A DNA stretch of 64,000 bases from NCBI GenBank assembly GCA_963747695.1, contig CAVVFV010000010.1, positions 325,618 to 389,617 of the forward strand, written 5' to 3'. This DNA comes from Candidatus Falkowbacteria bacterium (GTDB lineage: Bacteria > Patescibacteriota > Patescibacteriia > Patescibacteriales > WJLG01). The first letter of the stretch is position 1, and every line of letters begins with the position of its first letter. A program made the position numbers and the translations under genes. This document shows positions 6,896 through 58,521 of the stretch, piece after piece. Under the pieces are notes generated by a model that was not told where the DNA came from, did no database searches, and saw nothing but the letters and a program-made list of their open reading frames with translations.

Positions 6896-6940
6896 GGACT
6901 CGCCAGTGGATGAACCCCCGGCGCCCGGTCGGACTTGCCC
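6896..6940 (-). repeat. tRNA-associated double-hairpin element, copy A (5'-truncated, degenerate)
   Basis: Minus-sense gtccgaccgggcgccgggggttcatccactggcgagtcc matches copies at 23224-23270 and 55761-55806. It is flanked by gggcaa (6886-6891) and ttgccc (6935-6940). Confidence 0.6.
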
Positions 6941-6960
6941 CGCCCCATTTACGTTTTTTG

Positions 6961-7034: not shown

Positions 7035-7049
7035 CCATTATTAAATAAT

Positions 7050-7204
7050 GGTAATTAGACAAATGGGGCGGGGTGAATAAACCGGATGCTCTAACCCGCC
7101 TCGACGAGCTGAAACTCGTCTTCGGCGAGGCGGGCCAACTGAGCTAATTACCCTGAATGCTCCCTGTCCCGCCGTGGCGGGATAACCAGTTGAGCTATAA
7201 GCCC
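7050..7204 (-). pseudogene. Two tRNA 5'-fragments (D-arm consensus) interrupted by GC-rich hairpins
   Basis: Minus-sense GGGCTTATAGCTCAACTGGTTA (7204-7183) is followed by hairpin cccgccacggcggg. GGGTAATTAGCTCAGTTGG (7153-7135) is followed by a 40-nt hairpin (7095-7134), then TTAGAGCATCCGGTTTAT. Neither fragment completes a cloverleaf. Confidence 0.45.
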
Positions 7205-9244: not shown

Positions 9245-9290
9245 GTCCCCTTTTGGGAGGGGTGGCCGCGCCGCGCGGACGGGGTGGGTT
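9245..9290 (+). repeat. E1 GC-rich palindromic repeat, copy 2
   Basis: gtccccttttgggaggggtggccgcgccgcgcggacggggtgggtt, upstream of smc. Confidence 0.8.
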
Positions 9291-21988: not shown

Positions 21989-22660
21989 TTATTTTTTATT
22001 GCGACCGATGAATGCAAAATAATCCTTATCATCCTTCCACGTCTTTAAAAATTGAAAATTTTTAAAATGTTTTTTAATTAATTGCCTGTTATATATAAAA
22101 TGTGTCAAACCTGCTTCATTTCCTTGGGTCGGCAAATAAGTGTTTGGCGCAATTTTTTTGGCAGTCTTCACTAAAAACAGTCTAATTTTTCCTTTTGAAA
22201 TACGACCGCATAAAGTAATAAAAATTAATCCACCCGGTTTAACAATCCGGGTGATTTCTTTAATTGTTTTTAGGATAGCGGTTTCTTTGGCGTGTTGTAA
22301 TACTTGAACGCTAATTAAAGCGTCAAAATAGTTGTCTCGATATGGCAATGGCGCAAAAGCGTTTTCTAATTTTAAATCAGCTTGTAGCCTGCGTTCCTTT
22401 AGGGTTTTTCTTAATATTTTTAAGCCAGACGGGGCGCTATCTAGGCCGTAAACACTAAAATTATTTGCCAAAGGCAAAATATTTCTACCTGCCCCACAGC
22501 CAAGATCTAAAACTTTTTTAACCCCAAGCTCTTTAAATATTTTAACAACCTTACCTAAATCCGGGTGAGGGGTTTCTAAAATATCGTAATACTTGTAATC
22601 TTTTCCCTCGCCCTTATAAATTTGTTCCCATTGAGAACTTTTTGTTTTTAGGTTGTTCAT
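21989..22660 (-). CDS. Class I SAM-dependent methyltransferase (AT-rich cassette)
   Basis: VLDLGCGAGRNILPLA motif I and LISVQVLQH. Visibly lower GC than the surrounding core genes. Confidence 0.75.
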   Translation of the reverse strand: MNNLKTKSSQWEQIYKGEGKDYKYYDILETPHPDLGKVVKIFKELGVKKVLDLGCGAGRNILPLANNFSVYGLDSAPSGLKILRKTLKERRLQADLKLENAFAPLPYRDNYFDALISVQVLQHAKETAILKTIKEITRIVKPGGLIFITLCGRISKGKIRLFLVKTAKKIAPNTYLPTQGNEAGLTHFIYNRQLIKKHFKNFQFLKTWKDDKDYFAFIGRNKK

Positions 22661-22795
22661 AATAAAAGTATAACAAAAAATTGCTTAAACAGCGATTTTC
22701 ATAAAAAAGAGAATAATTTCTAAACCCGTCTGCCGTTATCTCAAAAGCGACCTTTTTAATACAAAGACAGCTCCAATATTGGCGCTGTCTCATGT

Positions 22796-23047
22796 AGCGG
22801 AGTGGGCGGGATCGTTCCCTCGCGGCTCTCGCCTCGCTCCTGACCAGTTCGAGCCCCTGAACGAGCCAAGGGGTTGACTTACATGAGCTGCGGTCGCGCT
22901 CGCGTCGCTTCCGCTCCGCTCACTTGTCCAGAGGCAGCGCCGACCTGCCCCCGGCAGGTCGTCGGCCGCTCGCCTGCGTCTGCCGCCGCCGGAATTGCGG
23001 CGGCAGACGCGTCTCGCTCCTGCAGTTCGAGTCCCGCTTCCTCACAA
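22796..23047 (+). repeat. GC-rich T-loop-ended units U1 (partial) and U2 (full, about 22863-23047)
   Basis: Both end in CTCGCTCCTG(AC)CAGTTCGAG(C/T)CCC. U2 aligns block-by-block with the minus-strand units at 55201-55365 and 55401-55571. 22796-22811 repeats 15 of 16 nt of the tRNA-Asp 3' end region. Confidence 0.7.
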
Positions 23048-23092
23048 CTCAAATTTAAAACAGCCCCGAATAGGGGCTGTTTTAAATTTGAG
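23048..23092. terminator. Bidirectional terminator shared by tRNA-Asp and unit U2
   Basis: Perfect hairpin ctcaaatttaaaacagcccc-gaat-aggggctgttttaaatttgag abutting the tRNA-Asp 3' end. Confidence 0.75.
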
Positions 23093-23166
23093 CGGAGTGG
23101 ACGGGACTCGAACCCGCGACCTCTTCCGTGACAGGGAAGCGTTCTAACCAACTGAACTACCACTCC
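23093..23166 (-). tRNA. tRNA-Asp (anticodon GTC)
   Basis: GGAGTGG/CCACTCC acceptor, CTTCC-CTGTCAC-GGAAG anticodon arm, GCGGG-TTCGAGT-CCCGT T arm. 74 nt. Confidence 0.9.
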
Positions 23167-23223: not shown

Positions 23224-23283
23224 GGCCTCGCCAGGGGATGAACCCCTGGCGCCCGGTCGGATGACCGGGCGAACTACCACTCC
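23224..23283 (-). repeat. Double-hairpin element copy B fused to an exact 13-nt copy of the tRNA-Asp 5' end
   Basis: Minus-sense GGAGTGGTAGTTC (23283-23271, identical to 23166-23154) followed by gcccggtcatccgaccgggcgccaggggttcatcccctggcgaggcc. Confidence 0.75.
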
Positions 23284-23672: not shown

Positions 23673-25046
23673 ATGAATAACGAGCAAATTTGGCAAGCGG
23701 CCTTGGGCGAGATTGAATTGAATTTGTCCAAAGCAAACTTCACCACGTGGTTTAAGAATACTTTTGTTTCTTCTTTTGAAGACGGCCGGGCGATCCTCTG
23801 CGTCCCTAATGCTTTTACCAAGTCGTGGTTAGAAACAAAATATCACAAAGAAATCGCCAGCGCGCTCGAGCATGTCGTAAATCTAAAAATCAAAGAAATA
23901 CTTTACAAAGTGGAGTTGAAGAAAGCTGCGGCTGGTGCCGGCCTCCTGGAAAAAATCCATCTCAAAAAGAAAAAAGAAAACAGTGAAAGCAATGAAATAG
24001 TTTCCTCGGCCAATCGCTTCGGACTCAATCCTAAATATACTTTTGAAGCTTTTGTCGTCGGGCGCGGGAACGAACTGGCCCATGCCGCTTGCCAGGCGGT
24101 GGCCAATAACCCCGGCCGCGTTTATAATCCGTTATTCATTTACGGCGGCGTCGGTCTGGGAAAAACTCATCTCCTGCAGGCCATCGGCAATGAAATAGCC
24201 AAACGGACCAACAAGGTTCTTTATACCACCAGCGAAAACTTCACCAACGACTATGTCAACTCGGTCCGCTCGGGCAAGGCCAAGGACTTCAAAGACCGTT
24301 ATCGCAATGTCGATCTCTTATTAATCGATGATGTGCAATTCATGGGCGGCAAAGACGGAACTCAACAAGAATTCTTCCACACCTTCAACGAACTGCAGCA
24401 AGCCGACAAACAAATAATTCTCACTTCCGACAAACCGCCGAAATTGATTCCGGCGCTCGAGGCGCGGCTGGCTTCGCGTTTCGAATCAGGAATGGTAGCC
24501 GATATCGGCCAACCGGACGTGGAAACCAAAGTGGCCATCTTGGAAAGAAAGGCGCGGGAAAAAAATTATCTCCTTGATACTGAAATCCTTCATTACGTCG
24601 CGGCAAATATTAAAAATAATATCCGCGAGCTGGAAGGCGCATTAAACAAAATCGTCGCTTATCATGAATTCAATAACACCGCGCCGACTTTAAAAACCGT
24701 CAAAAGCATCCTTAACGACTTAATCGTTTCCACCCAGGCCCGCTCGATCTCACCCCGGGATATTATGGAAGCCGTCTGCCGCTTCTATAGCATTGAAAAC
24801 AAAGATTTGATCGGCAAGGGCCGTAAAAAAGAGCTGGTCTGGCCGCGCCAAATTTCTATTTATTTGATGCGCAAGGAAATCAATTACTCCTACCCGACGA
24901 TCGGCAATGAGTTGGGCGGCCGGGATCACACCACGGCCATGCATGCTTATAATAAAATCCTCGACGAAGTTGAAACCAAGGAAAACGAAAAAGTAATTCA
25001 GGAAATCGAATCGATCAAGCAAATCCTTTACAGCTCCCCTTTGTGA
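23673..25046 (+). CDS. dnaA: Chromosomal replication initiator DnaA
   Basis: GGVGLGKTHLLQAIGN, LLIDDVQFMGGK and C-terminal HTTAMHAYNKI. 457 aa. Confidence 0.95.
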   Translation: MNNEQIWQAALGEIELNLSKANFTTWFKNTFVSSFEDGRAILCVPNAFTKSWLETKYHKEIASALEHVVNLKIKEILYKVELKKAAAGAGLLEKIHLKKKKENSESNEIVSSANRFGLNPKYTFEAFVVGRGNELAHAACQAVANNPGRVYNPLFIYGGVGLGKTHLLQAIGNEIAKRTNKVLYTTSENFTNDYVNSVRSGKAKDFKDRYRNVDLLLIDDVQFMGGKDGTQQEFFHTFNELQQADKQIILTSDKPPKLIPALEARLASRFESGMVADIGQPDVETKVAILERKAREKNYLLDTEILHYVAANIKNNIRELEGALNKIVAYHEFNNTAPTLKTVKSILNDLIVSTQARSISPRDIMEAVCRFYSIENKDLIGKGRKKELVWPRQISIYLMRKEINYSYPTIGNELGGRDHTTAMHAYNKILDEVETKENEKVIQEIESIKQILYSSPL

Positions 25047-25294: not shown

Positions 25295-26437
25295 ATGAAT
25301 CTCTCAATCCTGAAAGAAAATTTAAAACAAGGATTGTTCGTTGTCAGCCACTTAGCCGGTAAAAATGCTAACCTGCCGATTTTGAATAATATTTTAGTCG
25401 AGGTTAAAAAAGAAGGAGTGCGGCTGGTCACCACGAATTTGGAGGTCGGCATAACGCATTTTATTCGCGGCAAGGTTGAAAAAGAAGGAAGTTTTACGGT
25501 GGATGCCAAGATTTTTGCCGACTACATCAATCTTTTGCCGAATAAAAAGATAGATTTGATCAGGGAGGATGGCGCGCTGCGCGTCGAGTGTGAAAATTTC
25601 AAGACAAAAATAAAAACCGAAGCCAGTGAAGATTTTCCTTTGATTCCGCAAATTGAGAAAAAAAATAAAAAAACGGTCAAGATTTCCGACTTGAAGAACG
25701 CCCTCGCGAAAGTAGTTTTTGCCGCCGCTTCGAGCGAATCCCGGATTGAGTTGTCTGGAGTCTTGTTTACCATTAACCAGAATAAATTAGTCTTGGCGGC
25801 CACCGACAGCTATCGCTTGGCGGAAAAGGAGCTGGAAATTAAAGAAGACTCGGGCGAAGGGAAAGAGAAGAACGTCCCGGAACAAAAAGTAATTGTCCCG
25901 GCCCGGACGATCCAGGAGATTTTGAGAATTTTAGCCGGCCTGGATCAGGGTGAAGGCGGCAAGAAGGAAATCAGTTTTTATATCAACGACAGCCAGATCT
26001 TGTTTGCCGTTGATAACACCGAGCTGATCTCGCGTTTGATCGAGGGGCAATACCCCGACTATAAGCAGATTATTCCGGCGGCCGGTAAAACCACGGCGGT
26101 GTTGAACCGCTTTGAATTAATTAGGGCCATTAAAGCGTCGGCGCTTTTTTCCAAAAGCGGCATTAACGATATTAATTTGGATTTCCCTGAAGGCAAGAAT
26201 CAGGTGATCGTCTCGTCGGCTTCCGGCACCACCGGCGAGAATATCGTCAAGATCGAGGCCGAGACCACCGGCATCGACAATGGCATCATCATCAACTATC
26301 AATATTTATTAGACGGGCTGAACAATATCGACGAAGAGACGATCAAACTGGAAGTGATCGACGGCAACACGCCCTGTCTGATCAAACCGCTCGGCGAAAA
26401 GGGATATTTATACATCATTATGCCGATTAAACAATAG
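25295..26437 (+). CDS. dnaN: DNA polymerase III beta sliding clamp
   Basis: 380 aa, MNLSILKENLKQGL... typical clamp N-terminus. Lies directly after dnaA. Confidence 0.9.
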   Translation: MNLSILKENLKQGLFVVSHLAGKNANLPILNNILVEVKKEGVRLVTTNLEVGITHFIRGKVEKEGSFTVDAKIFADYINLLPNKKIDLIREDGALRVECENFKTKIKTEASEDFPLIPQIEKKNKKTVKISDLKNALAKVVFAAASSESRIELSGVLFTINQNKLVLAATDSYRLAEKELEIKEDSGEGKEKNVPEQKVIVPARTIQEILRILAGLDQGEGGKKEISFYINDSQILFAVDNTELISRLIEGQYPDYKQIIPAAGKTTAVLNRFELIRAIKASALFSKSGINDINLDFPEGKNQVIVSSASGTTGENIVKIEAETTGIDNGIIINYQYLLDGLNNIDEETIKLEVIDGNTPCLIKPLGEKGYLYIIMPIKQ

Positions 26438-42646: not shown

Positions 42647-42661
42647 TAACGCGTTAAAAAA

Positions 42662-42707
42662 GTCCCCTCTTGGGAGGGGTGCCGAGCCCGGCGAGGCGGG
42701 GTGGGTC
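42662..42707 (+). repeat. E1 repeat, copy 3
   Basis: gtcccctcttgggaggggtgccgagcccggcgaggcggggtgggtc, 16 nt after the glyA stop. Confidence 0.85.
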
Positions 42708-42724
42708 TATTCCCGACATTATTT

Positions 42725-43795: not shown

Positions 43796-43808
43796 GGTAA
43801 AATAATAA

Positions 43809-43852
43809 ACCCACCCCGCCTCGCCGAGCTCGGCACCCCTCCCAAGAGGGGA
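43809..43852 (-). repeat. E1 repeat, copy 4 (inverted relative to copy 3)
   Basis: The reverse complement tcccctcttgggaggggtgccgagctcggcgaggcggggtgggt differs from copy 3 at a single position. Confidence 0.85.
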
Positions 43853-43887
43853 TTTTAAAAAGCGTTACGGGTTACGCGTTATGAGTT

Positions 43888-49525: not shown

Positions 49526-49903
49526 GTGAGCGATACCATCGAAAAGGCAGAGCTAGCCGGCCTGAGTGATTTGCTCATCAGCGATCAGCTCGTGGTGGAC
49601 GTTGCCGGCAAGAAGCTGTTCGTTTTTGTAAATCGCCAGAAGGAAACCGGCCTACGGAAACTTGTGGTGGACGTTGCCAGCAAGAAGCTGCTCGTTTCAG
49701 CAAATCATAAGAAAAAATCCGGTCTGCAGAAAAACGCCGAACATTCTGCCGCCTATCGCCTTTTTTTTGGCGAGCGGGAGACATCGCCCGGAGAAGCAAT
49801 GTTGATCTTTTGGCATTACTATGCTTTGGAAACCAGCCATTACATCACTGAAAACGGCACTTTTACCCTCCTGGTCGGCCAAGGTCGTCCTCGCCTGAAT
49901 TGA
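49526..49903 (+). CDS. Hypothetical protein with a 24-aa tandem repeat (GTG start)
   Basis: SD aaggagg 6 nt before the GTG. DNA repeat of period 72 nt (49592 and 49664) encodes VVDVAGKKLFVFVNRQKETGLRKL and VVDVASKKLLVSANHKKKSGLQKN. Confidence 0.55.
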   Translation: MSDTIEKAELAGLSDLLISDQLVVDVAGKKLFVFVNRQKETGLRKLVVDVASKKLLVSANHKKKSGLQKNAEHSAAYRLFFGERETSPGEAMLIFWHYYALETSHYITENGTFTLLVGQGRPRLN

Positions 49904-52644: not shown

Positions 52645-52688
52645 ACCCACCCCGTCCGCGAGGCGCGGCCACCCCTCCCAAGAGGGGA
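52645..52688 (-). repeat. E1 repeat, copy 5
   Basis: Reverse complement ttcccctcttgggaggggtggccgcgcctcgcggacggggtgggt. Flanked by AT-rich aattagcat/attcgc word arms. Confidence 0.85.
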
Positions 52689-54121: not shown

Positions 54122-54583
54122 ATGTCAGTCCTAGCGGTAAACAAAAGAGCGACATTTGATTATGAAGTTCTGGATAAATATGAAGCCGGGCTGGTTTTGT
54201 TCGGCCATGAAGTCAAATCGGTACGCGCCGGCAATGTTAATTTGAAAGCAGCCTATATCACTTTAAGAACTGATCACGCCGGTTTGCCCGAAGCTTATCT
54301 GATCAACGCCCACATCTCTTTATATAAATATGCCAGCACGATTAAAGATTATGATCCGACCCGTTCGCGCAAACTTTTATTGAAGGCTAAAGAAATCAAA
54401 TATTTGTTAGGAAAAACCAAAGAGCAAGGCTTGACTTTAGTGCCATTGCGTATCTATACTAAGAACAGAATTTTGAAATTGGAATTCGGTTTAGCGCGCG
54501 GCAAGAAGAAATTCGACAAGCGCGAAGACCTCAAGAAAAAAGACCTTGACCGCGAATCTCGCGCGATGATGAAGCGATATTAA
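54122..54583 (+). CDS. smpB: SsrA-binding protein SmpB
   Basis: NKRATFDYEVLDKYEAGLVLFGHEVKS. Adjacent to ssrA. Confidence 0.95.
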   Translation: MSVLAVNKRATFDYEVLDKYEAGLVLFGHEVKSVRAGNVNLKAAYITLRTDHAGLPEAYLINAHISLYKYASTIKDYDPTRSRKLLLKAKEIKYLLGKTKEQGLTLVPLRIYTKNRILKLEFGLARGKKKFDKREDLKKKDLDRESRAMMKRY

Positions 54584-54594
54584 AAGATTTAACA

Positions 54595-54696
54595 CACCCC
54601 GTCGCCGCGGCGGCGCCACCTCCGCCTCGGCCCGCCTTGCTGAAGCTTTGGCGAGGCAGGCAAGCCTTGGGCGAGACGGGCCTCTCAAGAGGGGAA
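54595..54696 (-). repeat. E1-related repeat, copy 6 (long, degenerate)
   Basis: Begins caccccgtcgccgcgg and ends cctctcaagagggga. The central part is a longer imperfect palindrome (gcctcggcccgccttgc...gcaagccttgggcgag). Confidence 0.6.
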
Positions 54697-54764
54697 TCTA
54701 AACACCGAACTTTGACAATAAAATAATTTGTAATTTTTAATTCTTAATTTGTAATTGATTGAAA

Positions 54765-55142
54765 GGGGATGCCAGGCTTCGATGACAAGAATTATTGCTA
54801 ATACTCAAGGCGTGTCGGATTTCACGTAAAACGGTCCAAAATCACAATTGCGAACAAAATCGCTCGCGGAGCCGCCTTCACTTGGAAGGTTCCGGCTTTC
54901 GCGCCTGTTGCCGCTTAATACCGGCAGCCATTTCGCCTTCTGACTCCTCTGGGGAGGTGGGAGTGTCATTTTAGAGGATCAGGTTGCCAGTGTCGGCTCT
55001 TAGACTGGCAACCGAAACTAAATAGGGCTCGCCATTATTTTTTCGCCTTGCTTTTAGGTAATGGTCAAACTCAAGCTGGGCTAAACTTGTAGTAGTATTA
55101 TCAATAACTTGCCAGACGCGGGTTCAATTCCCGCCATCTCCA
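54765..55142 (+). ncRNA. ssrA: tmRNA (SsrA)
   Basis: 5' GGGGATG pairs with 3' CATCTCC. T arm GCGGG-TTCAATT-CCCGC. Tag reading frame 54850-54918 (GCG AAC ... GCC GCT TAA) gives ANKIARGAAFTWKVPAFAPVAA. Adjacent to smpB. Confidence 0.9.
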
Positions 55143-55143
55143 C

Positions 55144-55193
55144 AAGGTATTTTTTTGTATTTTTTTTGCTAAAAAAATACAAAAAAATACCTT
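55144..55193. terminator. 50-nt perfect palindrome, bidirectional terminator after ssrA
   Basis: aaggtatttttttgtatttttttt-gc-taaaaaaatacaaaaaaatacctt. Confidence 0.75.
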
Positions 55194-55200
55194 GCTGAAT

Positions 55201-55365
55201 GGTGCGGGAATTGAACTGGTCAGGAGCGAGGCAATGGCCGCGAGGGAACGAGCGGCCGGCAGCCGAGCGTCCGCCAAGCATTCGGGGAATGCTTGGCGCT
55301 GACCCTGGACGAGGGAACGAGCCGCTTTCCGGCGGCGAGTGACCGAGCAACGGTACCCAGACATG
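55201..55365 (-). repeat. GC-rich T-loop-ended unit U3
   Basis: Minus-sense catgtctggg...gtccagggtcagcgcc[hairpin]...ctcgctcctgaccagttcaattcccgcacc. Paralogous to U2 and U4. Confidence 0.7.
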
Positions 55366-55400: not shown

Positions 55401-55571
55401 TGCCGCGGCGGGAATTGAACTGGTAGCGAGCGAGATATGAGGTGAGGCGGAAGCCGAGTCGAATAATCGAGCGACGCCGGACGCGACCCAAGGGAGCGTT
55501 TGGCGGCAACTCTGGACGAAGGAGCGAGGCGGAATTCCGCCGCCGAGCGACTGAGACGGCAGTTCAGATGG
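55401..55571 (-). repeat. GC-rich T-loop-ended unit U4
   Basis: Minus-sense ccatctgaac...gtccagagttgccgcc...ctcgctcgctaccagttcaattcccgccgcggca. Confidence 0.7.
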
Positions 55572-55751: not shown

Positions 55752-55817
55752 AAGGGTTCGCCCGGTCATCCGACCGGGCGCCCGGGGTTCATCCCCGGGC
55801 GAGTCCCTCCCGGACCA
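55752..55817 (+). repeat. Diverged copy of the tRNA-Leu 3' end with double-hairpin element copy C inside the T-loop
   Basis: aagggttcg[cccggtcatccgaccggg cg cccggggttcatccccggg]cgagtccctcccggacca, compared with the genuine 3' end gtgggttcgagtcccacctggacca 40-100 nt upstream. Confidence 0.75.
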
Positions 55818-55905
55818 CATAAATAAATTAAAAATTAAAAATTAAGAATTAAAAATGACAGCTTGATTTTTTTTGAGATCGCTGATATTATTGTATTTGT
55901 AATTT

Positions 55906-57264
55906 TTAACTTTTCATTTTTAATTGAATTTTGCGGGTATCGTATACCGGTATTATGCCACCTTGCCATGGTGGAGAAACGGGTCCAATTCCCGTTACCC
56001 GCTCACTAATCATACAAGCCTCTTTTTTAGGAATTTTTTTTAACGCGAAGCGCAGCTCCACGTAAGGTTTAATGGGCACAAATTTAAGTTTTCCGGTTTT
56101 TAAAAACAAGTTCGAGCCGCAAATTTTACGCAACGAAGATTTTTTGGAGGATAAGTCGCCAGTTTTCACTGTTTCATCCAATAAAACTGCATCTTTTATC
56201 CAATTTTGGAGAGGTTCGAGCCAAGCGACAACCCCCTTGTTTAAGCTGGCCATTTTTTCCTCTAAATCCCTCTTCTGTAAGACAAGCTTTCTCTTTTCTG
56301 CCCGATAAACCTCGCGGTCGATATCTTGCTCCAAAAGGGCATCAAGAAGGACACGGAGCTTGTTGGAAATGGCCGCTATCTCCGCTTTGATCGCTTGGCT
56401 CTCCGTGCCTGACGATTGGAGTGCCTCTTTTTCATCCTTTTCCGCCATCTTCAATAATTCTGTGGCGCAATCGGCAGGCAAAATGAACTCTTTTAGGATA
56501 TCCGGCAATTGGCCGGTTAAATCATCTTCTTTGACGCAGGGTTGGGAACAGGTCCCTCTTTTTTTTGTACAACGGTAATAAGCGTAGCGATGAACATTAC
56601 CGTTCTTTTGATGCTTAATTTTAACTTCTCCGGTTATGGCGCAACCGCACTCATCGCACCGGATAAGCCCGCAAAAAACTTTTGGCTCACCCTTTGGATT
56701 TTTAGGCGGTTTGCCACGCTCATTTAATACTTTTTGAACTTTATCAAAAAGCTGTTTGGATATAATCGGCGTATGTTTGCCTTCGTGAAGCTCTCCGTCA
56801 TAGCGAAACAAGCCGAAATAGAAAGTGTTGGTTAAAATATACGTCACGCGGTCGCGCGATATGGTTTTGCCAGATCTGGTATGGATGCCGCGCTCGGCCA
56901 AAAATTTCGCTACGTCCTCAAGGCGGGTGTCGCCATTGGCGTAATACTCAAACGCTTCGCGAACGGCTTTCGCGATTTTTTTGTCGACGACAATCGTCTT
57001 GTATCTCCGGTCGTTGAAATAGCCGACGGGCGCGCGCGAAGGATATTCGCCGTTTTTAACTTTTTCATTAAGGCCGCGCCTGGTGTTTGTGCTTAGGTCG
57101 ATAATAAACTGGTTGGCCATGCCAAACTCGACGCTCATCAGCAGAATATTGTCCGTCGAGCGATAACTGCGGTCGTGGGTTTGGATGTGCTGGATTATCC
57201 CCCGCTGGAGAAACCAGCTAATTTGCCCGCCGTCGACGGGTATAATGGTCCAGGAATCCTGCAC
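55906..57264 (-). pseudogene. Large serine recombinase, 5'-truncated by the IS element
   Basis: Recombinase domain (PVGYFND...ILTNTFYFGLFRY), zinc ribbon (CGLIRCDECGCAI...YYRCTKK) and coiled-coil are present. The N-terminal catalytic-Ser region is missing, and the reading frame abuts the IS left end. Confidence 0.75.
55933..56003 (+). tRNA. tRNA-Gly (anticodon GCC)-like, non-canonical T-loop
   Basis: GCGGGTA/TACCCGC acceptor, CCACC-TTGCCAT-GGTGG anticodon arm, ACGGG-TCCAATT-CCCGT T arm (C where U55 is expected), weak 3-bp D stem. It lies antisense inside the 3' end of the recombinase ORF. Confidence 0.6.
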
Positions 57265-57314: not shown

Positions 57315-57653
57315 ATGAGTAAACAAAACAAAGTATCCAAAGAAGAGAAAGCTAAGATCGTTCTAACCGTCCTGCGGGGCGAAAAGACTGTCAGCGAGAT
57401 TGCGGCGCAATACAGTGTTCATCCCAACCTGATAACCCGCTGGAAACAGACAGCCACCGAAAGCATGGCCGAGCTGTTTGAAGACAAGCGCAATAAGATT
57501 GAAAAAGACAAGTTTCAAGAGCAAGAACAACTGGTAGACAGGCTGTATAAATTGGTTGGCCAGCGAGACATTGAGCTCGACTGGCTCAAAAAAAAATTAT
57601 CAATCTTTGACGATGATCGACCGGCTAAAATTGGTCGACCGAGAAAATCCTGA
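57315..57653 (+). CDS. IS3-family transposase OrfA (HTH)
   Basis: KEEKAKIVLTVLRGEKTVSEIAAQYSVHPNLITRWKQ followed by a leucine-zipper-like region. Confidence 0.85.
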   Translation: MSKQNKVSKEEKAKIVLTVLRGEKTVSEIAAQYSVHPNLITRWKQTATESMAELFEDKRNKIEKDKFQEQEQLVDRLYKLVGQRDIELDWLKKKLSIFDDDRPAKIGRPRKS

Positions 57654-58521
57654 TATCACTCTGACCCGCCAGACTGAATTGCTGGACATCTCCCGCTCCC
57701 GCCTGTATTACCAGACCGAAGTCAGCGAGAGGGATCTGCTCATTATGAATCTGATTGATGAAATATATACGGAAAATCCAAGCTACGGCAAGAGGACGAT
57801 AGCGGCCATTATCAGGCGCGACCATAAAATTCCGGTTGGTAAAAAACATGTCCGGACGCTAATGATCAAGATGGGTATTACGGCGATATATCCGAAGAAA
57901 AAGAGGGATTTGAGCCAGCCGGACAAACAGCATAAAATTTATCCGTATCTGCTCCGCGGACTATCAATCACCAGGTCGAATCAGGTTTGGAGCACGGATA
58001 TCACCTACATCAGATTAGAACACGGCTTCTGCTATTTAACGGCTATCATCGATTGGCATTCGCGCTATGTCATTGCCTGGGAATTGTCTAACACATTAGA
58101 TATCGATTTTTGCTTGCGAGTTCAAGAGCGAGCCTATGCCTTGGCAATCCCTGAGATTTTCAACTCTGATCAGGGCAGCCATTTTACCAGTCCGAAATTC
58201 ACCGCCGCCAGTCTGGAAAAAGGCGTCAAAATCAGCATGGACGGCAAAGGCCGCTGTTTGGACAATATCTTCATTGAGCGATTGTGGCGGACAGTTAAAC
58301 AGCAGGATGTTTACATCAAGCACTACGAATCGGTGGCTGAATGCCGAGCCGGCTTAACGAAATTTTTTGACAGCTACAACAATTACCGTCCGCATCAGTC
58401 GCTCAACTACCTTACTCCCGCCGAAGCCTATTTCGGCCAAAACAAAAAAACTGCCTTTACAGAGCAGCTTAATATACCAAGCTTTAATTTAAATGCCGTC
58501 CTGACCAACCCAACTATTTAA
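57556..58521 (+). CDS. IS3-family transposase OrfB (DDE integrase core)
   Basis: WSTDITYI (D), NSDQGSHFTS (D), IERLWRTVKQQ (E). Presumably expressed as an OrfAB fusion across the A9 run at 57588-57596. Confidence 0.85.
   Translation: MASETLSSTGSKKNYQSLTMIDRLKLVDRENPDITLTRQTELLDISRSRLYYQTEVSERDLLIMNLIDEIYTENPSYGKRTIAAIIRRDHKIPVGKKHVRTLMIKMGITAIYPKKKRDLSQPDKQHKIYPYLLRGLSITRSNQVWSTDITYIRLEHGFCYLTAIIDWHSRYVIAWELSNTLDIDFCLRVQERAYALAIPEIFNSDQGSHFTSPKFTAASLEKGVKISMDGKGRCLDNIFIERLWRTVKQQDVYIKHYESVAECRAGLTKFFDSYNNYRPHQSLNYLTPAEAYFGQNKKTAFTEQLNIPSFNLNAVLTNPTI

Follow-up and report, generated by a model that had tools for sequence, protein, structure and literature searches.

A candidate miniature insertion element with target-derived flanks behind tRNA-type genes of Patescibacteria

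Genes for tRNA and tmRNA are classic landing sites of large elements; here, we describe a non-coding module of ~150 nt that lies behind such genes, combining a conserved predicted fold with flanks derived from the target. The module, which we call family A (GC-rich, roughly 110–165 nt per unit), was found in a 64-kb stretch of bacterial DNA (the window) with a G+C content of 44.5%, placed by its DnaA homologues among Falkowbacteria-like Patescibacteria. We put the chances at about even that family A is a small insertion element, non-autonomous and targeted to the 3′ part of tRNA-type genes.

Results

Four units lie behind tRNA-Asp and tmRNA

The window contains dnaA (23673-25046), dnaN (25295-26437), and smpB with tmRNA (54122-55143). 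An intact tRNA-Asp(GTC) is situated ~500 nt upstream of dnaA, and units U1 and U2 sit behind it; U3 and U4 sit behind tmRNA. The features are as follows, in window coordinates:

22758-22795, minus strand: T2, a second terminator, whose hairpin pairs 22765-22771 with 22784-22790 and precedes a T-rich stretch when read on the minus strand (local alignment)
22796-22811, minus strand: direct copy of the tRNA-Asp 3′ end, from the 3′ T-stem strand through the acceptor strand and discriminator to 2 trailing nt (15/16); far boundary of the insert
~22812-22860, minus strand: U1, a truncated unit of the U3 subtype (weak nhmmer and cmsearch matches)
22880-23038, minus strand: U2, a full family A unit (cmsearch 141 bits; nhmmer 2e-31)
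22976-23010, no strand assigned: H_A hairpin of U2, a perfect 14-bp stem (22976-22989 with 22997-23010) with loop CGGAATT
23025-23036, plus strand: inverted copy of the tRNA-Asp T loop and 3′ T-stem strand at the gene-proximal end of U2 (12/12, GTTCGAGTCCCG)
23025-23113, no strand assigned: 89-nt imperfect palindrome comprising the tRNA-Asp T loop to 3′ end, T1, and the inverted copy (fold)
23050-23090, no strand assigned: T1 (A-tract, GC hairpin, T-tract), directly after tRNA-Asp and at the centre of the long palindrome (sequence, inverted repeat, fold)
23092-23166, minus strand: tRNA-Asp(GTC), intact (ARAGORN; Rfam RF00005, 72.6 bits)
54765-55143, plus strand: tmRNA gene, the second site with family A units (ARAGORN; Rfam 145.5 bits)
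55122-55216, no strand assigned: 95-nt palindrome comprising the tmRNA T loop to 3′ end, an AT-rich hairpin, and the inverted copy (DNA fold −38 kcal/mol, z = −10.8)
55203-55363, plus strand: U3, behind tmRNA (cmsearch 129.8 bits); its folding strand is the tmRNA strand
55407-55570, plus strand: U4, the second unit behind tmRNA (cmsearch 112.1 bits)

An earlier, sequence-only reading of this DNA had described the interval next to tRNA-Asp as GC-rich and as holding one partial and one full unit of a family also found at tmRNA. Both descriptions were borne out: 22796-23047 is 69% G+C compared with 44.5% for the window (45 of the 60 nt in 22921-22980 are G or C), and cmsearch and nhmmer identified the full U2 and the truncated U1 as members of the same family as U3 and U4. 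U1 retains half of H_A, the 5′ strand of the long-range helix P1, and an inverted T-loop copy (GTTCGAGCCCC, 22847-22857); aligned with its full-length counterpart behind tRNA-Asp in the relative L370, it lacks ~105 nt.

A covariance-model search at full sensitivity, with filters off, returned four family copies in the window, all behind tRNA-Asp or tmRNA. Loci of relatives were fetched through DnaA and SmpB homologues. In the fetched loci that were searched, copies again lay solely behind tRNA-type genes, and neither nhmmer (~220 loci) nor the covariance model (97 loci) found members beyond the ~10 known units. Protein-coding units were considered and rejected: no ORF lies within the units, those that overlap them extend into the terminator or over the tRNA, and U2 and U3 do not share a conserved frame.

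Units are flanked by direct and inverted copies of the neighboring gene

At the far boundary of the tRNA-Asp insert, 22796-22811 (AGCGGAGTGGGCGGGA) and 23091-23106 (AGCGGAGTGGACGGGA) run in the same direction and agree at 15 of 16 positions, as had been noticed from the sequence. We regard this repeat as non-random because a match of this 16-mer with at most one mismatch is expected only 0.005 times per shuffled 64-kb strand. The repeat was also checked as a possible piece of a second degenerate tRNA, which it is not: ARAGORN and Rfam gave no match at 22796-22870 even at E up to 10, and the flanking sequence is a U3-type hairpin loop.

We read T1 as a bidirectional terminator, and a strict terminator scan of the window did not list it. 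T2 is collinearly similar to T1 (local alignment score of 13 compared with a shuffle mean of 6.9, p ~0.004), and the duplicated segment therefore spans the T stem through the terminator and exceeds 16 nt. In the window, L093, and L095, the terminator is part of the duplication, whose length at unit sites ranges from 16 to ~60 nt.

The other flank of U2 is inverted. Its end, CAGTTCGAGTCCCGC (23024-23038), carries the T-loop/T-stem copy of tRNA-Asp, 23025-23036 being the exact reverse complement of 23102-23113, and forms the outer arm of the 89-nt palindrome. This palindrome, centred on T1, has an internal bubble opposite the acceptor strand, with a DNA fold of −37.9 kcal/mol (z = −11.0), a value that none of 200 shuffles equalled. 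Read in the tRNA sense, the order of the locus is thus tRNA-Asp, T1, inverted copy, U2 body, junction remnants, U1, direct copy, and T2.

The tmRNA locus has the same layout, with direct copies that are mostly decayed and inverted copies that are perfect: GCGGGAATTGAAC at 55204-55216, and a 14-nt copy of the tmRNA T loop and stem at the start of U4 (55407-55420). Across loci, the palindromes formed by gene and terminator measured 89-95 nt with z = −9 to −12; they gave microRNA-precursor-like Rfam matches, all below threshold. The direct copies of U1, U2, and U3 are degenerate.

Occupied and empty sites in relatives

The occupied sites in relatives, with DnaA or SmpB identity to the window, were as follows:

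L004, 91% DnaA, tRNA-Asp: T1, a 14-nt inverted copy, one short unit, a 20-nt perfect direct copy, and a second terminator-like hairpin
L370, 87% DnaA, tRNA-Asp: one full unit and a 17-nt perfect direct copy beside a terminator
L002, 92% DnaA, tRNA-Asp: two units, the distal one truncated
L369, 94% DnaA, tRNA-Asp: the contig begins inside a unit
L087, 86% SmpB, tmRNA: a unit is present; the contig ends within it
L095, 61% SmpB, tRNA-Gly, the last gene of a tmRNA-tRNA-Leu-tRNA-Gly cluster: a 13-nt inverted copy and a 29-nt direct copy that includes 11 trailing nt
L093, 61% SmpB, tRNA-Gly of the same tmRNA-tRNA-Leu-tRNA-Gly cluster: a 17-nt direct copy

One layout recurred at tRNA-Asp, tmRNA, and tRNA-Gly: the gene, T1, an inverted copy of the T loop and 3′ T-stem strand, the body, and a direct copy that runs from the T loop to the 3′ end of the gene (17-29 nt, perfect in relatives), usually with a second terminator after it. 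The best-preserved sites also retain the trailing bases and T2; the terminators T1 and T2 themselves vary between loci. At every occupied site, the inverted copy matched the local T loop (ACTCGAA for Asp, AATTGAA for tmRNA, and AATCGAA for Gly). The inverted copy terminated at G53 or T54 and, in eight loci, the direct copy started at T-loop positions 54-58, so that both junctions of the body fall within the T-loop segment.

The sequence-only reading had proposed a comparison of empty and occupied sites in related genomes, and this comparison succeeded. Opposite the occupied tRNA-Asp sites of L002, L004, and L370, we found four loci of more distant relatives (L009, L020, L031, and L050; 70-75% DnaA identity) in which tRNA-Asp is followed by a terminator without an insert. 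Empty sites were also found at tRNA-Gly in L109 and at tmRNA in L088. No recent presence/absence polymorphism of units within a species was seen.

The same three-copy geometry was also observed around unrelated bodies, at tmRNA in L130 and L147 and at tRNA-Ala in L057. In L106, a terminator palindrome reaches 12 nt into the 3′ end of tmRNA, and no unit is present there.

The classical footprint of integration into a tRNA gene, as which the tRNA-Asp locus had been interpreted, found partial support. The direct repeat is real and recurrent (20 nt in L004, 17 nt in L370, and 29 nt in L095), and empty sites exist; the inverted copy, however, is unexpected for such a footprint, and there is no adjacent integrase. 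None was found next to the units at four tRNA-Asp loci (window, L002, L004, and L370). Neighboring genes in the window, L002, and L004 contained no recombinase domain, nor did those in L370 according to precomputed annotation, and a crude pattern search saw no tyrosine-recombinase-like C-terminal motif in the ORFs of the window.

Two observations concern the surroundings of the units. When the window, L002, L004, and L370 are compared, the genes between a DAGK-like gene and tRNA-Asp are not the same, a pattern like that of an integration hotspot. The 64-kb window also holds, at a tRNA-Gly gene, a degraded element of the large serine recombinase type.

Homologous bodies occur at different gene types

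Units at tRNA-Asp, tmRNA, and tRNA-Gly were connected by blastn, nhmmer, and cmsearch. We distinguished three body subtypes, each present at two gene types or more, and the flanking copies always matched the local gene. In the U3 subtype, U1 at tRNA-Asp and U3 at tmRNA are 87% identical over 46 nt, and the full tRNA-Asp unit of L370 aligns along all of U3. In the U4 subtype, U4 at tmRNA is 79% identical to the tRNA-Asp-proximal unit of L369, and their T-loop copies read TTCAAT and TTCGAG, respectively. The U2 subtype occurs at tRNA-Asp (window), tmRNA (L087), and tRNA-Gly (L093 and L095).

Between the window and L087, tmRNAs are 89% identical and the tmRNA-adjacent units 65-67%; between the window and L093/L095, tmRNAs are 65% identical and the units 70-76%. 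Unit similarity thus does not track host relatedness, and subtypes cross gene types; the units behave like a family of paralogous repeats that move or convert, and unlike a relic inherited in place. The sequence-only reading had left a choice between a miniature non-autonomous element and a highly decayed one. The former proved the better half of that alternative; a highly decayed element is at odds with the conserved fold (see below) and with units that keep 70-76% identity where the tmRNAs of the same genomes share only 65%.

The body has a conserved predicted fold on the tRNA-sense strand

RNAalifold, applied to six full units, predicted a long-range helix enclosing two hairpins. In this predicted structure, 88% of cells were paired, compared with 75% in shuffles and 30-41% for slid partners, and changes on both sides were found in 14 of 27 pairs, a number that 0 of 500 shuffles reached. 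Stems differed wholly between units, while the loops (CAATTCCGG, GGGG, GGAA) and unpaired purine-rich segments were conserved. The covariation indicates that the body retains its predicted fold by compensatory changes on the tRNA-sense strand, which is opposite to the orientation in which the units had been read before.

On this folding strand, U2 consists of the long-range helix P1, hairpins H_A and H_B, and a GCGGAAGC hairpin. The 14-bp stem reported earlier for U2 is real and corresponds to H_A; it had been thought to be lacking in U3 and U4, but these and the other units form a hairpin there too, built from different stem sequences.

Several features distinguished the two strands. The consensus energy was −17.9 kcal/mol on the tRNA-sense strand and −10.7 kcal/mol on the other, and 10 of 10 units folded better on the tRNA-sense strand, a preference that stems partly from G-rich composition and concerns a structure that had been predicted on that same strand. 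G-U type cells numbered 10 and A-C type cells 2, and by reading the alignments and folds we noted tandem G-A mismatches on the tRNA-sense strand. The motifs GAGCG/GCGAG occurred four to eight times per unit on the tRNA-sense strand and zero to one time on the other, with ~1 expected (eight and none, respectively, in U2).

The units are T-poor (9-14% T), and no promoter-like site was found at or within them. In the window, L004, L093, L095, and L370, a terminator hairpin stands at either end of the unit or array, separated from it by ≤15 nt, and truncated copies persist (U1 and the distal unit of L002). With the Rfam 15 covariance models, only tRNA and tmRNA passed, and nothing matched over the unit bodies even below threshold.

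Discussion

A model for movement between tRNA-type genes

In the insertion model, recombination at the T-loop segment would carry the family A body, or a copy of it, from one tRNA-type gene to another. The 3′ end of the gene and its terminator would be duplicated or re-supplied, such that the gene stays intact and a displaced copy comes to lie on the far side (here 22758-22811), and the recombining enzyme would act in trans. Folded single-stranded DNA may be the recognized form, by analogy with integron attC or the CTX phage attP hairpin; this is the least secure step. It is suggested because the unit lies between terminators, no promoter-like site was found, the fold is strand-specific, and a ~90-nt palindrome is formed with the 3′ end of the gene. 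By the same analogy, the order of a direct copy (in the gene), a hairpin, an inverted copy, cargo, and a direct copy would be expected from a hairpin-folded single strand that mimics a duplex target.

Several points weigh against the insertion model, which is built on a sample of ~10 units from one bacterial lineage. No recombinase, transposase, or other ORF accompanies a unit in the window, L002, L004, or L370, and the terminators, which vary between loci, may not travel with the body. An element that carried its own tRNA end hardly explains how homologous bodies gained Asp-, tmRNA-, and Gly-specific flanks. The inverted copy is not predicted by the classical tyrosine-integrase (Campbell-type) model. 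Lastly, gene conversion among units already present at several loci could yield the subtype pattern without transposition.

We also considered a broader and doubtful proposal, namely that family A and its look-alikes in L130, L147, and L057 form a new class of miniature integrative elements that enter the T-loop segment as folded single-stranded DNA through a host or helper recombinase in trans. The duplex target would be mimicked by a hairpin made of the gene-like 3′ end, the terminator, and the inverted copy, and integration would leave behind the direct, inverted, cargo, direct order, an attC/CTX-like mechanism at the tRNA genes of ultra-small Patescibacteria.

Alternative explanations

The main competitor of the insertion model is template switching combined with gene conversion. 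If replication or repair switched templates at the palindromic terminator, the tRNA 3′ end would come to lie in the direct, inverted, direct order, a geometry that resembles DUP-TRP/INV-DUP structures; GC-rich hairpins would accumulate at the junction, and ectopic gene conversion, by way of the T-loop and body sequences that the loci share, would keep the loci similar. Such a local rearrangement fits the flanks, which always come from the local gene, the resemblance of T1 and T2 to diverged duplicates, and the unit-free L106, in which the terminator palindrome extends 12 nt into tmRNA; and the unrelated bodies at tmRNA (L130, L147) and tRNA-Ala (L057) make the geometry more general than family A. 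However, homologous bodies at three gene types, in lineages with 61% SmpB and 65% tmRNA identity, would still need transfer between sites. Filler DNA would not keep a covarying fold and conserved unpaired motifs, and the junctions are sharply limited to the T loop at all loci. We hold this account to be unlikely. Less likely still is the decay of an integrase-borne island or prophage at tRNA-Asp, with the 16-nt repeat as attR and the 250 nt as leftover att-arm DNA, which we consider improbable and place last among the alternatives. A direct repeat of the tRNA 3′ end from the T loop is the classical signature of a tRNA-targeting integrase, and both the variable gene content between the DAGK-like gene and tRNA-Asp (window, L002, L004, and L370) and the degraded serine recombinase element at tRNA-Gly in the window are in keeping with islands here. 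Yet independent decay would not leave the same ~150 nt behind three gene types, and also in distant relatives, with 70-76% identity and the fold preserved. No integrase fragment is found in or beside any unit, the units stand in tandem and belong to different subtypes, the inverted T-loop copy is left unexplained, and viral contigs among the matches listed contain no units.

A further rival is that the tRNA-sense strand encodes an expressed structured RNA, transcribed through T1 or from an unrecognized promoter, which we judge distinctly unlikely. Its end copies would pair, and tRNA-processing enzymes would mature it. In its favor, the covariation supports hairpins around a three-way junction; the tRNA-sense strand is the one favored by G-U pairs, tandem G-A mismatches, and GGAA loops; the purine-rich unpaired segments are conserved; and the unit always lies downstream of, and co-oriented with, a tRNA-type gene. 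In L004, from a reading of the sequence, the ends can form a 17-bp helix, but the terminal helix is not conserved, since the direct copies of U1, U2, and U3 are degenerate, and a generic helix would not need locally copied flanks. We ranked expressed RNA below a DNA-level element because of the lack of an Rfam family match, the lack of a promoter-like site in T-poor units (9-14% T), the enclosure by terminator hairpins on both sides at ≤15 nt (window, L004, L093, L095, and L370), and the persistence of truncated copies.

Some further candidates were rejected. A primer-binding site for tRNA-primed reverse transcription does not fit copies that share the trailing bases of the gene (CT in the window, CA in L004), not CCA. 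For a phage or plasmid origin, we searched viral contigs with the tRNA-Asp 3′ end or two unit motifs (59, at least 120, and 24 loci), and there was no unit among the matches listed. If the body were an att arm in the classical Campbell scheme, the far junction would have no T-stem/T-loop half-site, and the inverted copy would stay unexplained. IS91-type insertion at GTTC and an IS110 bridge RNA do not account for the duplicated tRNA end, and their cognate genes are absent.

Comparison with known systems

Returning to family A as a candidate insertion element, one close likeness is to tRNA/tmRNA-targeting tyrosine-integrase islands. Both target the 3′ part of a tRNA-type gene with a T-loop junction, leave the gene intact, place a displaced 3′-end copy at the far boundary, form tandem arrays, and have empty sites in relatives. 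Tycheposons, too, reportedly target tRNA genes. Those of Prochlorococcus have been described as novel integrative elements (10.1101/2020.12.28.424599), and the T-loop sublocation of tRNA integration is known from mycobacteriophage Ms6 (PMC1762012). Family A differs from the islands in that its insert is 110-165 nt per unit, non-coding, and without an integrase; in that it adds an inverted T-loop/stem copy by the terminator, and its duplication can include the terminator; and in that its flanks change with the target while the body is homologous. An integrase defines tRNA-targeting integrative elements and is lacking in family A, and the inverted copy is foreign to that model.

Folded single-stranded recombination substrates are exemplified by integron attC and by the CTX phage attP(+) hairpin that XerCD uses, and a conserved strand-specific fold without evident transcription is typical of such substrates (attC, CTX attP, and REP). 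Family A resembles attC and CTX attP in an imperfect palindrome whose internal bubble re-creates a duplex copy of the target, in the strand specificity of its predicted fold, and in stems that vary while pairing is kept. Its 89-95 nt palindromes also fall within the 57-141 nt range of attC, a generic and non-discriminating feature (for attC features, see PMC5027507). The conserved triplets of family A have the polarity GTTC...GAAC whichever strand is read, whereas attC has an R″ box (RYYYAAC) followed by an R′ box (GTTRRRY). Unlike in attC or CTX, the functional tRNA gene itself supplies one arm of the palindrome, and no IntI or Xer gene is linked to a unit.

Bacterial MITEs and REP/BIME-type repeats include Correia, RPE, and REP, the last mobilized by RAYT. 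Like these, family A units are small, non-coding, hairpin-rich, G+C-rich relative to spacers, intergenic, often beside terminators, non-autonomous, and assembly-breaking. Their terminal inverted sequences, by contrast with those of MITEs, come from the target and change with it; there is no short fixed target-site duplication, and only four copies occur in 64 kb, solely behind tRNA-type genes. The body is a multi-helix fold, not the single palindrome of REP/BIME. Casposons and the integration of CRISPR spacers by Cas1 also produce long target duplications, and some casposons target tRNA 3′ ends. Family A shares with them the long direct target duplication and the preference for the 3′ ends of tRNA genes, and differs in having no Cas1 or other protein gene, a duplication of 16 to ~60 nt, and the inverted copy. 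Family A is, in sum, not a MITE by the usual criteria, not attC by box polarity, and not any Rfam family, and we found no description of its architecture in the literature searched.

If the insertion model is true, family A represents a new way for very small DNA to colonize tRNA genes and might bring to light a recombination activity in Patescibacteria, a group with barely characterized mobile elements. The model is directly testable, as the junction sequences are defined to the base. There are also practical consequences. The tRNA fragments made by units could be mis-called as att sites of islands, and the units break metagenome assemblies beside dnaA and tmRNA: contigs of relatives broke inside units in L001, L087, and L369, as expected because the units are repeats.

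The layout behind tRNA and tmRNA genes recurs with other fillers and may have a 5'-side counterpart

The arrangement of gene, hairpin, inverted T-loop copy, filler and direct copy of the gene's 3' end was also observed in three relatives' loci whose fillers have no relation to family A, the GC-rich folded unit. The direct copies there measure 16-24 nt, and the L130 filler contains nested GGGAATT...AATTCCC repeats.

Family-A-like geometry in relatives
L130, 3284-3445, behind tmRNA
L147, 1269-1470, behind tmRNA
L057, 80-253, behind tRNA-Ala

At another relative's locus, L106 (3140-3200), the palindrome of the tmRNA terminator takes in the last 12 nt of the gene (ATTGTGGAGATG), with neither a unit nor a direct copy.

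Sequences resembling tRNA 5' ends were found as well. In two close relatives, L370 (3040-3150) and L369 (225-340), the intact tRNA-Asp gene is preceded, at a distance of ~45 nt, by a pseudo-copy of its initial ~29 nt, and the D loop of this pseudo-copy holds a GC-rich insert of ~60 nt. This pseudo-copy looks like the 5'-side counterpart of the 3'-side architecture. Upstream of tRNA-Val in the window (7035-7204), we observed two fragments resembling tRNA 5' ends (7183-7204 and 7135-7152, minus strand), in which GC-rich hairpins interrupt the D loop. The tRNA-Val gene itself is bracketed by a 13-nt inverted repeat, CCCCGCCCCATTT / AAATGGGGCGGGG (6938-6950 / 7061-7073).

Two further repeat families are present in the window

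A second repeat family, B, consists of two GC hairpins, GTTCG-CCCGGTCATCCGACCGGG-CG-CCnGGGGTTCATCCCCnGG-CGAGTCC. A third family of GC-rich intergenic repeats, C, is built as ACCCACCCCG-hairpin-CCCCTCCCAAGAGGGGA; its copies lie in both orientations.

Copies of families B and C in the window
6896-6933, B, 5'-truncated, after tRNA-Val
23224-23283, B, upstream of tRNA-Asp
55754-55819, B, behind tRNA-Leu(TAA)
9246-9289, C
42659-42711, C
43804-43856, C
52645-52688, C
54590-54700, C-related sequence

Behind tRNA-Leu(TAA), the tRNA 3' end is repeated directly and family B interrupts the T loop of this repeat, GGGTTCG[B]GAGTCCCTCCCGGACCACA, which matches the last 16 nt of the gene at 14 of 16 positions. 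The copy upstream of tRNA-Asp is preceded by a 13-nt copy of the first bases of that gene (23271-23283). We found no copy of family B in the relatives' loci searched. Family C may be a REP-like or terminator-associated element. Elsewhere in the window (49589-49732), a 72-nt sequence occurs in two tandem copies with 79% identity, in a region without an ORF of at least 150 aa in the non-overlapping ORF list.

A probable degraded element lies at tRNA-Gly

The tRNA-Gly gene (55933-56004), which bears a family-A unit in the relatives' loci L093 and L095, is crossed antisense in the window by a large serine recombinase ORF. This ORF keeps its Recombinase and zinc-ribbon domains and is missing the catalytic N-terminal domain.

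Features at tRNA-Gly
55906-57264, minus strand, large serine recombinase ORF
57315-58521, plus strand, two adjoining ORFs

Judged by their protein sequences, the two adjoining ORFs look like an IS3-family transposase, and together with the recombinase ORF they look like a degraded element integrated at tRNA-Gly.

Gene content varies and contigs break near dnaA

The interval that separates tRNA-Asp or dnaA from a conserved DAGK-like gene had a different gene content in every close relative, and in L004 the orientation of the tRNA-Asp module is inverted.

Genes in this interval
Window, 21989-22660, methyltransferase
L002, 2939-4257, two unknown ORFs
L004, 2850-4634, and L370, 926-2672, TrmB-family regulators

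The interval is a variable hotspot adjoining the replication-initiation genes. In the same or related organisms, contig edges fall either within a unit or several hundred bases before the start of dnaA (contigs of P0005 and P0027, the end of L001, the end of L087 and the start of L369), so that the units act as repeats that break assemblies.
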